This document shows positions 59,776-64,000 of a stretch of 64,000 nucleotides of DNA, piece by piece. Origin of the DNA: an uncultured Nitrospiraceae bacterium (GTDB lineage Bacteria; Nitrospirota; Thermodesulfovibrionia; Thermodesulfovibrionales; Dissulfurispiraceae). The translations under genes were made by a program, and so were the position numbers. Within the stretch, counting starts at the first letter, position 1, and the number at the start of each line of letters is the position of its first letter. The stretch is taken from the NCBI GenBank assembly GCA_963727805.1, contig CAVSHF010000003.1:32001-96000 (forward strand), read 5' to 3'. A model generated the notes under the pieces. The model made no database searches. It saw nothing but the letters and a program-made list of their open reading frames with translations, and had not been told where the DNA came from.

Positions 59776-60867
59776 TTGAAGACCAAAGGAAAATCAACCA
59801 AGATATTGTCGGCGGTGGAAAGGCCGCCCCGCAAACGCATTATTTCCACTATTGAAGCGGACCAATTTCTGGATACAGTCGGACTCAACAGGATGGAGCA
59901 ATCTTTTCGCGGATGGGTGAATGTATCACTTCGCGCAGACGTACGCCTCGCTCGCCGGCGCATTTTGCTCATCTTTCTGTTGATACGTTACACTGGAGCC
60001 AAGCTGAATGAGGTGTCACGCCTTGACCCGTTTCACGATATCGACCATGAGAGACAATCCATCTTCTTTCGTAACGCCACCAGCGTAGAGCAAAGCGCTA
60101 GGGAAGTCCAGATCTCCGAAGCCCTTTCCCGGGAGATTAGCTCCATGCTTGACGATCCTGATTTCGCGGCGTCGATACGTGAAACTTTCAGCATAGACCC
60201 CGCCTTTGTGCGACGAAAATTCTACGAGCGGGCACAGGCGTGCGGGCTCCCGAAACGGCTGGGAGGTCCGGAGATGATCCGGAAAGCCCGGGGCACTGAA
60301 CTGATGCAGGGCAACGTGCCCCTACCGGCTGTCCAGAAGATGTTGGGACATTCGACACCCAACCTTACGTCTTCCTATATATCGTTCTCCGAAGAGGAGA
60401 TTAGACAAGTAACGAGATATTTCATGGAAAAGGAATCATCCCGAAAGACAAGTGCACGAAACTTCTTTTTTGGAAAGATCCAGGTAATTAAACGCGGCGA
60501 TATACAGAGTCAGGTAGAGTTGGTCACAGTTGAGGGTTATCAGATCACCACAATAATCACCAATGACAGCATGGGGCGACTCGGTTTGAAAGTAGGGAAC
60601 CTGATAACGGCCGAAGTGAAAGCGCCATGGGTCATTTTGCAAAAAGGTGGTATAGAGCCTGAAAGTTCAGCAGACAATAGATTCAAGGGTATCGTAGAAA
60701 AGGTCAGCAACGGAGCGGTCAACACGGAGTACGTTGTGCGCATATCAGATCGAATTGAGCTATGCTCTGTTGTCAGCACAGAAAGCAGCGAGCTACTCGA
60801 TCTTAAGAAGGGCGATACTATTTGGGTCCTATTCAATTGTTATTCAGTGGTATTGCATGTTGATTGA
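59776..60867 (+). CDS. TunR-family regulator (degenerate XerC/D-like domain plus two TOBE domains)
   Basis: YTGAKLNE, EMIRK and LGHS...Y integrase-like boxes; KTSARNFFFG and SSADNRFKG TOBE repeats. Confidence 0.85.
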   Translation: MKTKGKSTKILSAVERPPRKRIISTIEADQFLDTVGLNRMEQSFRGWVNVSLRADVRLARRRILLIFLLIRYTGAKLNEVSRLDPFHDIDHERQSIFFRNATSVEQSAREVQISEALSREISSMLDDPDFAASIRETFSIDPAFVRRKFYERAQACGLPKRLGGPEMIRKARGTELMQGNVPLPAVQKMLGHSTPNLTSSYISFSEEEIRQVTRYFMEKESSRKTSARNFFFGKIQVIKRGDIQSQVELVTVEGYQITTIITNDSMGRLGLKVGNLITAEVKAPWVILQKGGIEPESSADNRFKGIVEKVSNGAVNTEYVVRISDRIELCSVVSTESSELLDLKKGDTIWVLFNCYSVVLHVD

Positions 60868-61219: not shown

Positions 61220-61570
61220 TTAACACTTCCCGCAGACAGATCCCAGGTCCTTGCCGCGACGGAATTTCTCAAGCCTTTCTTTGTCCTTCTGAACTCCTTC
61301 CCCATTGGCCCTCTCTAGTACGGAAATCACCAGAAATCTTCTGAAGATATCTGATTCGTCGAGACGATAATGAATCCATTTACCGTGTTTTGTGTCCTTT
61401 ACCAAGCCCGCATCCTTCAGTGTTGCAAGATGGAAGGAGACCTTCGGCTGAACAATATCAAGAGCGGCAACGATTTCGCAAACGCAAAGTTCACCATGTT
61501 CGAGAAGTTTGAGTATCCTGAGTCTCGTCTCGTCGGTAAGGGCCTTAAAAACTTGTATCATATCCTGCAT
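61220..61570 (-). CDS. arsR: ArsR/SmtB repressor
   Basis: FKALTDETRLRIL, ELCVCE As(III)-sensing motif, SFHLATLKDAGLV; GGAGG RBS before ATG 61570. Confidence 0.92.
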   Translation of the reverse strand: MQDMIQVFKALTDETRLRILKLLEHGELCVCEIVAALDIVQPKVSFHLATLKDAGLVKDTKHGKWIHYRLDESDIFRRFLVISVLERANGEGVQKDKERLEKFRRGKDLGSVCGKC

Positions 61571-61699
61571 TCTCTTTGAAAACCTCCGCAATGATCGTAT
61601 AATCTTAGATATATTTAAATATATCATAATTATTCAGGCTTTACGAACAAGCGACAAATAATGTCAAGTAATCATTGGTTATAGCTGACGTCAGAGGTA

Positions 61700-61906: not shown

Positions 61907-62986
61907 ATGAGCACAGTTACGAAGAAAATGTCCTTTCTTGACCGCTTTCTAACCCTATGGATATTTGCAGCGATGATCCTGGGTGTCGGCATCGGTTATT
62001 TCATCCCCGGTGTGGAGGGACTGATCAACAGCTTTCAGGTCGGCACAACCAATATTCCAATTGCGATCGGCCTGATTCTAATGATGTACCCTCCTCTTGC
62101 GAAGGTGAAATATGAGGAATTGGGGGAGGTATTCAAAAACAAAAAAGTCTTGGGACTTTCCCTTGTGCAGAACTGGATTATCGGTCCGATACTGATGTTT
62201 CTACTGGCGATAATCTTCCTTCAGGATTATCCGGAATATATGGTAGGCCTCATCATGATCGGCCTTGCCAGATGTATTGCCATGGTCATCGTCTGGAACG
62301 ACCTGGCATGCGGAGATCCTGAATACGCCGCCGGACTGGTCGCCTTCAATTCGATCTTTCAGGTGCTCTTCTTCTCGGTCTACGCATATATCTTCATCAC
62401 AGTCCTTCCGTCTTGGTTCGGACTCAAAGGTGCCGTTGTGCATGTGACGATAGGTCAGATAGCAGAAAGCGTCTTTATATACCTCGGCATACCTTTTCTG
62501 GCTGGTATGCTGACCCGGTTCACACTGCTCAGGATCAAGAGTCGACAGTGGTATGAAAGCAAATTCATTCCGAGAATAAGCCCATTTACGCTTATATTCC
62601 TCCTCTTCACAATTATCGTTATGTTTTCGCTAAAGGGAAATTATATTGTCAGACTTCCTATGGATGTGGTTCATATTGCAATACCGCTGCTGATTTATTT
62701 TGTCATCATGTTTCTTGTTTCGTTCTATCTGGGCAGAAAGATAGGGGCGGATTATGCGAAGACCGCGACGCTTTCATTTACCGCGGCTAGCAATAATTTT
62801 GAGCTCGCCATCGCAGTTGCTGTAGCAGTCTTCGGGATAAATTCCGGCGCAGCATTTGCAGCGGTCATAGGGCCTCTCGTCGAAGTACCAGCTCTGATAG
62901 GACTCGTGAATGTAGCCCTCTATTTTCAAAGGAAATATTTTTCGGACCAATTCTGTGGGGTGGCCGACGTTAAGCCTCATTCGTAA
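61907..62986 (+). CDS. acr3: ACR3 arsenite efflux permease
   Basis: [39 protein letters not shown] and GPLVEVP motifs. Confidence 0.97.
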
Positions 62987-63064: not shown

Positions 63065-63541
63065 ATGGAGAAGAGACGTGTGTTGTTTGTATGCATTCAT
63101 AACAGTGCCCGCAGTCAGATGGCACAGGCATTTCTAAACATGTTAGCGGGCGATCGCTTTTTAGCTGAGAGCGCGGGCCTTGAGGCTGGCACATTGAATC
63201 CCCTTGCAATAGAGGCGATGGCCGAGGTCGGCATTGACATCTCAGGGAATACTACTCGGCGAGCGTTCGATTTACTAAAGAGTGGCCAGCGTTACAATTA
63301 TGTGATAACAGTTTGTGATGCAGCTAATTCTCAGAAATGCCCGATATTCCCCAATACCTTGCAATACCTTAACTGGAGTTTTCCTGATCCTGCTCAATTG
63401 CAAGGTACCCATGGGGAGAAAATGAATGAAGTTAGAAAGATTCGCGATGCCATCAAAGAGAAGCTGCAGGCATGGATATCAGCGCCAGAAGAAGATCGCG
63501 GTACCGGAGCAAATATTCCACCTTTTAAGGTCGGAATGTAA
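63065..63541 (+). CDS. arsC: Arsenate reductase (LMW-PTP fold)
   Basis: [14 protein letters not shown]-loop; VCD...KCP redox Cys pair; WSFPDP. Confidence 0.93.
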
Positions 63542-63565
63542 AGTAAGTTATTAATATATACATCT

Positions 63566-64000
63566 ATGGCAGAACTTAAACTTATATCTATCAATAAGAA
63601 GTCATTCAGTGACGCTCCATCTGCGGTTACTACGCCAGGTGCCATTTGAGACGCTAAGGTATGCTGCCCCGGCGGGGCGGATCGTAAAGAGCCATGGATA
63701 GCCGGATTTGTCGAGTCAGACAGCGGCAGCATCCCGCGAGTCTCGACTGACATAACCCGGACGGACAAATGGGAGCACTTGAAGTGTCGGACAAGCTCCT
63801 TCAGAAATAATTATACTGTCATTCCGGGATTGTATGCTGTTGGAAACCCCGACGCTGACTCAGACGTCATAGTTACCGCAAATTACAAATACAGTTTTGA
63901 TGTAGTCCGCGGCGTACTAAAAAGACTCAATCTGTGGATCCTCGTCCTTGATACAAAGGGTATCAATGTCTGGTGTGCTGCTGGTAAGGGGACATTCGGG
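63566..64000 (+). CDS. hgcA: Mercury methylation corrinoid protein HgcA (5' part; in-frame UGA at codon 28)
   Basis: Frame from ATG 63566: MAELKLISINKKSFSDAPSAVTTPGAI-UGA-DAKVCCPGG...PGLYAVGNP...VTANYKYSFD...WILVLDTKGINVWCAAGKGTFG (cap-helix signature); runs off the window. Confidence 0.9.
63650..63680 (+). promoter_or_regulatory. Putative bacterial SECIS element
   Basis: UGA at 63647-63649, 14-nt spacer, then stem CTGCCCC/GGGGCGG with a G-initiated GGC loop 21 nt after the UGA. Confidence 0.55.

Follow-up and report, generated by a model that had tools for sequence, protein, structure and literature searches.

HgcA makes methylmercury; SAM methylates its cobalamin, from which the methyl group has been proposed to reach mercury, and the terminal cysteines of HgcB have been implicated in the process (PMC11588087, available part). 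Forms of HgcA with selenocysteine (Sec, U) have already been published and carry an N-terminal CU motif, PCUGP, which is conserved in 20 of 20 proteins of 363-400 aa (available text of Haft and Gwadz, 10.1101/2022.07.06.499078). Recoding of UGA requires selenium and amounts to 30-40% in E. coli, as stated in the accessible part of PMC4513850. Within the accessible main texts and passages on HgcA and selenocysteine, only the CU motif is given and a U-x4-C-C arrangement was not found described. Likewise, HgcA was not mentioned in the main text of BSepDB (PMC13326102), as far as that text was available.

The window, i.e., the whole stretch of 64,000 nucleotides that was analysed, ends inside an hgcA gene with an in-frame UGA at codon 28, and this codon is predicted from the sequence to be read through as Sec, a reading held here with high confidence. 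Compared to the published forms, the likely novelty lies in the different position of Sec, the loss of an upstream cysteine cluster and a likely separate gain. The features of the gene and its surroundings are as follows.

63566..64000, plus strand: hgcA codons 1-145 (whole gene 389 codons, L006:5567-6736)
63566..63568, plus strand: likely hgcA start codon ATG (M-A-E-L-K), without Shine-Dalgarno sequence
63566..63676, plus strand: predicted disordered N-terminal arm, residues 1-37 (pLDDT below 50 for residues 1-29 and 31-37)
63647..63649, plus strand: TGA in frame as codon 28, likely read as selenocysteine and shared by relatives
63662..63667, plus strand: Cys33-Cys34, distal cysteine cluster of the family, 11 and 10 residues ahead of Trp44
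63664..63680, plus strand: SECIS-like hairpin of 7 bp with loop GGC (63671-63673), in the codons for C-C-P-G-G-A
63959..64000, plus strand: cap-helix region G-I-N-V-W-C-A-A-G-K-G-T-F-G, with Cys137 at 63974-63976
L006:6733-7029, outside the window: hgcB, the likely GTG start of which overlaps the hgcA stop

The 3' end of hgcA lies 735 bases beyond the end of the window. The original prediction of an HgcA whose membrane domain and hgcB partner should follow past 64000 was borne out by profile scores and by helices in the structural model. The protein reached 400.4 bits with the HgcA profile NF040863 (cut-off 275) and its neighbour 112.4 bits with the HgcB profile NF040864 (cut-off 99); the HgcAB-like fusion model NF043039 scored below its cut-off. 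In an AlphaFold2 model that was run with Cys substituted for Sec, the confident fold begins at residue 41 and long hydrophobic helices at 229-251, 259-286, 296-315, 323-343, and 353-385 form a predicted C-terminal membrane domain. The best Foldseek match was the HgcAB model entry 9a0b (E 1e-17), and a sequence search for a solved HgcA structure matched only corrinoid iron-sulfur proteins. Residues N134, W136, C137, G140, and K141 are invariant in 111 aligned proteins, and the cap helix N134-K141 fits N-(V/I)-W-C-A-(A/G)-G-K, which we take to be the HgcA motif. HgcB, encoded adjacent to hgcA, features two 4Fe-4S motifs and a terminal Cys-Cys; its gene is intact in all five loci examined, with ATG as start codon in three and GTG in two of them. 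No second hgcA was found in the genome. The protein is HgcA on every test run, as judged from sequence profiles and model, and its methylation activity is a prediction.

Relatives were surveyed in 166 distinct hgcA loci, kept from L007-L208 (without L035). Most of them (137) have an open arm lacking UGA, while ten encode C-U-P, one S-U-P, and seven a UGA at the new position; the remainder are cut by a contig end (10) or broken (1). The HgcA proteins of L007, L008 and L009 comprise 389, 389 and 384 aa, respectively. Among the 120 database proteins listed, all 15 with at least 77% identity are N-terminally short (289-368 aa), and the sisters P0016-P0022 (68-71% identity) are full length (380-393 aa) with the same M-x-E-L-K start. 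NCBI annotates 345 aa for a contig of the size of L036 as well as a form of 337 aa. The hgcA genes of this clade would fall into an annotation blind spot, being called about 44-100 residues short. No relatives were found among plasmids and viral contigs. The branch with C-U-P further includes L188, whose HgcA has S-U-P in place of C-U-P. Besides, two clade members are damaged. In L034:1326-2050 (G001), the gene is broken by a frameshift, by a TAG and by a deletion fusing the corrinoid part to the end of hgcB, and it retains UGA and hairpin at the same spacing. In L122:2922-3085, a 20-nt deletion, either an allele or an assembly artefact, takes out the UGA and shifts the frame, and an internal ATG reopens a frame of 368 aa with one arm Cys (P0004, cluster of 2).

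The reading frame was found as originally described. Between the arsC stop TAA (63539-63541) and the ATG at 63566 lie 24 nt, so that the ATG starts at the 25th base; a single TGA occurs in frame, within I-U-D-A-K-V-C-C-P, and no further in-frame ATG precedes the cap helix G132-G145. In-frame ATA at 63698 (codon 45) and TTG at 63779 (codon 72), which had not been listed before, are also present. A TGA occupies the same codon in L008 (= L036), L009 (= L037), L116, L119, L121, and L128, which together with the window make up the seven intact UGA loci (L119 and L121 being near-copies of each other), and in the broken copy L034. It is retained over these eight loci down to about 69% DNA identity, and they form a single clade (SH-aLRT 99, tested on six). 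The conservation of UGA and hairpin in hgcA relatives supports the original prediction. The claim of a context different from the published CU motif stood, as the eight loci have I, S, T or P ahead of U and neither PCUGP nor a CU dipeptide occurs; the single residues I, D, A, K and V of the proposed context turned out not to be conserved. The clade pattern is rather (P)-G-A/T-x-U-x4-(C/S/G)-C-P-G/V-G, with Gly directly after U in five of the seven intact loci.

It might be argued that the TGA is a nonsense mutation, a sequencing error or the mark of a decaying gene, and the two damaged clade members, L034 and L122, speak for this. Nevertheless, the same TGA stands in eight loci of considerable divergence, the pN/pS of the hgcA core is 0.17 and hgcB is intact wherever it was examined, so that conservation largely refutes this reading, the probability of which is close to negligible. 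A sequencing error is ruled out because the TGA recurs in related loci. A Logan contig (run X1), possibly from the source sample, covers 63463-64000 with 0 differences; contigs of run X6 over the TGA likewise showed no difference among the matches listed and were given no weight. Still, the invariance of the TGA is weak on its own, with 6 of 11 A/G two-fold columns invariant as well.

The hairpin downstream of the UGA had been described as a GC-rich stem of 7 bp with G first in its loop, and this could be reproduced: the stem begins 14 nt and the loop 21 nt downstream, and positions 63664-63670 pair with 63674-63680 in seven pairs including one U.G. With its 3-nt loop, 7-bp stem, C-GGC-G pattern, distance of 21 nt, and -11.4 kcal/mol, the hairpin fits the four criteria for bacterial SECIS elements (bSECIS) given in the available part of PMC13188914. 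The bSECIS test, which asks for a hairpin at a distance of 16-37 nt with an early G in its loop and at most -7.5 kcal/mol, was positive for the window and five of the six other intact loci, and L119 reached -5.2 kcal/mol as a perfect stem. In the same genome, hairpins of this shape and at least this stability follow 5 of the 549 TGA codons that terminate long ORFs and 6 of 3000 TGY/TGG control codons within genes. Over the eight loci, the core 5 bp are paired in 40 of 40 cells, compared to 42-68% in slid controls, with one two-sided change (C-G to U-A) and two one-sided changes (wobble), and RNAalifold independently recovered the same stem. The loop follows 21 nt after the UGA in the clade loci and reads GGC, GGA or GUC (G[G/U]N). 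Covariation was not distinguishable from shuffles, 136 of 500 of which scored as high over the eight loci (128-169 of 500 in another run), and the folding z-scores of three windows from or after the TGA (0.69, -0.43, and -0.18) were not significant against shuffles. Likewise, Rfam gave no match at the hairpin in L006.

In this genome, fdh, one selD, and a DsbA-like gene also have a C-G[G/U]N-N loop, which is located 17-19 nt downstream of their UGA. A strict hairpin model, which was defined after the data were seen, fits hgcA, 4 of the 10 other candidate Sec sites (missing 6) and 162 of 149,999 TGA triplets of the genome. Searching 401 genomes of the phylum for the DNA pattern of UGA plus hairpin returned three matches, as many as the reversed control, namely this genome, G010, and an out-of-frame chance match within an unrelated gene.

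The machinery for Sec insertion, which the original prediction had named as a check, is complete in this genome: selA, selB and two selD genes score over their cut-offs, and the tRNA-Sec was found by ARAGORN and Rfam (69.1 bits). Likewise, selA, selB and tRNA-Sec are present in the two other genomes with an intact gene. Within the family, 59 of 68 genomes have a selA over its cut-off, so that its presence is permissive and not diagnostic. A reading of the UGA as Trp or a different amino acid, owing to an altered code or leaky read-through, would fit the missing Cys counterpart at this position. However, TGA is an ordinary stop that terminates 549 of 1599 long ORFs in this genome, tRNA-Sec is the sole tRNA with a UCA anticodon among the 47 found, Trp occurs at the corresponding arm position (16 residues before the conserved Trp, W-16) in 0 of 99 arms, and a SECIS-type hairpin is conserved, which leaves this reading very little probability.

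Further candidates for Sec occur in the genome. Both selD genes (L004, L005) contain an in-frame TGA. Genes for DsbA-like and DsbC-like proteins with U-x-x-C and for an OsmC-like protein (L211, L213, L215; G000:C3, C5) likely encode further selenoproteins, Pfam domains spanning their in-frame TGA. At L212:118-411 (G000:C5:16714-17010, minus strand), read-through would yield a 98-aa protein with a signal-peptide-like start and V-K-U-F-D, followed 23 nt downstream by a strict SECIS-type hairpin; this protein has no Pfam match and is a candidate unannotated selenoprotein. A de novo scan of the genome for selenoproteins returned 32 candidates, with hgcA excluded by the coding-score filters. For the scan candidates L214 and L216, a Sec site is improbable, as no family extends across their UGA.

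The UGA could also be the real stop of a 27-residue leader or vestige, with HgcA starting at ATA (codon 45) or TTG (codon 72). This reading takes up the weakness already conceded in the original prediction, as the ATG indeed lacks a Shine-Dalgarno sequence, and the same is true in six of the seven intact loci. In-frame ATA or ATC at codon 45 and TTG or CTG at codon 72 are present in 7 of 7 intact loci, a Shine-Dalgarno-like 4-mer preceding the former in one of them and GGAG the latter in all. Moreover, the forms of 345 and 337 aa called by NCBI, the predicted disorder of residues 1-37 and the fact that a start at codon 45 would retain all secondary structure in the AlphaFold model are in line with a late start. 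So is the HgcA of strain ND132, which is numbered with its cap Cys at position 93, presumably lacks the arm, and methylated mercury in E. coli lysates (PMC11588087, available part). On the other hand, the GGAG ahead of codon 72 is a pair of Trp-Glu codons, and a start at 72 would cut a predicted helix and hairpin with pLDDT above 90. ATA and CTG are poor start codons. Upstream of codon 45, C-P-x-G-x-x-R-x-E-P-W is conserved as protein and homologous to the translated arms of relatives, and with respect to its loop and its distance from the UGA the RNA hairpin resembles those at Sec sites of this genome. A late start is thus improbable.

The upstream ATG matches the M-x-E-L-K start of full-length relatives without Sec. 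Its distance to the UGA is 27 codons in six of the seven intact loci and 22 in L009, where 15 nt are deleted in frame; this is the one indel before the UGA among the intact loci. A Shine-Dalgarno-like GAGG stands ahead of the same ATG in L121 and L034, the upstream genes of which are different. The stretch before the UGA has a pN/pS of 0.54-0.57 and is not significantly depleted in stops (shuffle P 0.41). From the UGA to the first TTG/CTG, pN/pS is 0.26 and 0.34, with 1.37 in the four codons immediately after U, and this stretch contains no stop in any of the 7 loci, compared to 1-5 stops in each of the other two frames (column-shuffle P 0.018). By these values, constraint at the protein level acts on either side of the UGA, apart from the four codons immediately after it, in favour of a reading as Sec.

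The arms of relatives carry two Cys clusters, 29-30 and 10-11 residues before the conserved Trp (99 distinct full-length arms). Cys occurs at W-29 in 47 of 96 and at W-30 in 40 of 84 arms, and in the distal cluster at W-11 in 67 and at W-10 in 28 of the 99. The latter corresponds to Cys33-Cys34 in the window; Cys34 is found in 7 of 7 and Cys33 in 6 of 7 intact loci, and position 33 is Ser or Gly in two loci. C-C-G-P is present in 21 of 99 arms and may represent the Cys form of the published PCUGP, according to our reading of the sequences. Five relatives have arms without any Cys. Sec is placed at W-16, where a Cys counterpart, looked for in the original prediction, is nearly absent: Cys aligns with codon 28 in only 2 of 99 arms without Sec and in none of the nearest sisters. 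The Sec/Cys pair on which selenoproteins are usually recognized is consequently lacking here. The nearest sisters can be aligned with this arm over its whole length and bear a CCG cluster about ten residues upstream of the UGA codon, and the clade lacks this upstream CCG(P) cluster. At the UGA codon itself they have TCA (L118), ACA (L117) or GCA (L123, L132), and a change from Ser TCA to TGA takes one nucleotide. The arm is of low complexity and rich in indels, so that poor alignment makes the homology of sites uncertain.

The subclade is nested among Nitrospirota HgcA whose arms have no UGA; two successive groups without Sec surround it (37 leaves, FastTree support 0.995, SH-aLRT 99). The database proteins P0011, P0032 and P0027 branch at its base. 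When the clade was joined to four Nitrospirota loci of the CU/SU type, an AU test rejected the union (p 6.7e-6; L208 was left out of this test). Provided that the UGA encodes Sec, a separate gain in this subclade is fairly likely, judged by these comparisons, and a non-Cys ancestor of the Sec codon takes up a little over half of that likelihood. With regard to the origin only, Sec might instead be the canonical PCUGP site that was shifted by indels and lost its neighbouring Cys, having been inherited or recombined. The frequent Gly after U, reminiscent of C-U-G-P, and the many indels of the arms are compatible with this, as is the distance from U to a conserved Gly, which by a count by eye is 27 residues to the Gly of T-P-A-G in GSU1440 (available part of the source) and 26 from U28 to G54 here. 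Yet the end-to-end alignment of the sisters, with Ser, Thr or Ala at the UGA codon, the enclosure of the clade by groups without Sec and a hairpin that, compared within Nitrospirota, has another sequence and another location than in the CU-type loci speak for a separate gain, and the shifted canonical site is a less probable, though serious, possibility.

Upstream of hgcA, the window contains genes connected to arsenic.

63065..63541, plus strand: arsC-like arsenate reductase gene (TIGR02691, 116.6 bits, under the cut-off of 174.3)
61907..62986, plus strand: acr3 arsenite efflux gene (TIGR00832, 467.3 bits, cut-off 282.8)
61220..61627, minus strand: divergent ArsR/SmtB-family regulator (NF033788, 99.6 bits, cut-off 55)

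The arsC-like orthologue in L036 matches LMWPc PF01451. Further genes around the ars-hgc block vary among relatives. In L036:721-4888 and L122:3-2896, arsC-hgcA follow a molybdopterin oxidoreductase, a 4Fe-4S subunit and a NarJ/TorD-type chaperone instead of acr3, possibly an arsenate-respiration context. Just past hgcB, L006:7053-7237 is a remnant of a 453-aa pyridine nucleotide-disulphide oxidoreductase with matching start and end; the oxidoreductase is intact behind hgcB in L036, which makes the remnant an internally deleted gene. A transposase (PF13701, L006:8343-9728) lies about 1.3 kb past hgcB, and positions 59776-60867 of the window (plus strand) encode a 363-aa protein with a tyrosine-recombinase-like region and two Mop/TOBE domains.

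The original prediction had considered an Hg- or As-binding tail. Its arsenic part is supported by the gene neighbourhood, since arsC directly precedes hgcA in six of the seven intact loci and acr3 is present in four of those. A Sec-Cys-Cys arm adapted to arsenic would take As(III) from ArsC and involve HgcAB in arsenic resistance. Three soft ligands suit As(III). In ND132, hgcAB are under an arsenic-responsive ArsR and the knockout is more sensitive to As(V) (10.1101/2022.10.17.512643, available part). Against this, L034, the most divergent UGA copy, lies behind a phosphofructokinase-like gene and outside any ars operon, L121 has neither arsC nor acr3 within 2.1 kb upstream, and Ser or Gly replaces Cys33 in two loci. 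As L034, which is basal in the clade with moderate support, shares its phosphofructokinase-like neighbour with the non-Sec sisters L117 and L123, Sec is likely older than the ars-operon context. An arsenic-specific role of the arm is therefore weakly supported and rather doubtful, and a mercury-binding arm is preferred.

According to the proposed mechanism, SelB would bind the hairpin, located 21 nt downstream, and decode the UGA as Sec, thereby placing Sec five residues before Cys-Cys on the predicted flexible N-terminal arm. The selenol and the thiols of the U-x4-C-C arm may then bind Hg(II), or a comparable soft metal(loid), and pass it on to the cobalamin/HgcB site. With regard to its origin, the upstream CCG(P) cluster would have disappeared from the subclade and Sec would have been acquired some ten residues downstream of it, the Sec codon probably arising from a small hydroxyl or methyl residue and the new SECIS being written into the C-C-P-G-G-A codons. 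Since the HgcA of ND132, believed to be armless, is active and 5 of 99 relatives have no arm Cys, the arm is likely accessory rather than essential. At low selenium, translation would stop after 27 residues and, owing to the overlap, less HgcB would probably be made; because the UGA stands early and hgcB overlaps the hgcA stop, the supply of both HgcA and HgcB would depend on selenium. The explanation as a whole, i.e., an hgcA-hgcB pair in which SelB and the hairpin turn UGA codon 28 into Sec on a predicted flexible, Hg-catching arm that was gained separately, is considered likely. A more far-reaching version is put forward tentatively, as less likely than not: Sec and SECIS arose de novo in the disordered arm from a non-Cys codon and replaced the lost Cys-Cys cluster, HgcA has recruited selenium repeatedly at different sites, and methylmercury formation is here selenium-gated at codon 28.

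The loss of the canonical Cys cluster together with Sec elsewhere suggests selection for a soft, high-affinity arm ligand and not for the CU motif. Arms with two Cys clusters, CU, U-x4-CC, and a deleted U offer a natural series for studying arm function. If the site had no Cys ancestor, it would be a rare exception to the Cys-to-Sec rule, and searches for Sec/Cys pairs would miss such sites. Moreover, a direct tie of selenium supply to HgcAB synthesis is predicted, which is true of canonical Sec-HgcA as well.

In comparison to well-studied HgcAB, the corrinoid domain with cap Cys and the membrane domain are shared with Pseudodesulfovibrio mercurii ND132 (PMC11588087), as are the 2x[4Fe-4S] HgcB with terminal CC and the link to ars genes (PMC11588087; 10.1101/2022.10.17.512643; available parts of both). 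Unlike in ND132, where the available text describes a co-transcribed ArsR-like gene, hgcAB here follow acr3-arsC with a divergent arsR. The CU-P/SU-P HgcA of Nitrospirota (e.g., L020, L024, L188, L208; 10 + 1 of the 166 loci) likewise have their UGA in the arm and, in most cases, a hairpin with early loop G 19-23 nt downstream. Still, their arm is shorter, with U 86-87 residues before the cap Asn compared to 106 here, their hairpin has another sequence, and they occupy a separate branch. With the Sec-HgcA of Haft and Gwadz, as described in the available text, the window protein shares a hidden N-terminal extension, a single in-frame UGA, a length of 389 aa within 363-400 aa, the presence of Sec machinery, and a truncated database annotation. 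It differs from them in that no Cys adjoins U, which is located five residues before C-C-P, in the missing upstream CCG(P) cluster, and in relatives that almost lack Cys at this position. Thus, the HgcA of the window would work like the published Sec-HgcA, yet its sequence, lacking the CU motif, places it outside the CU type.
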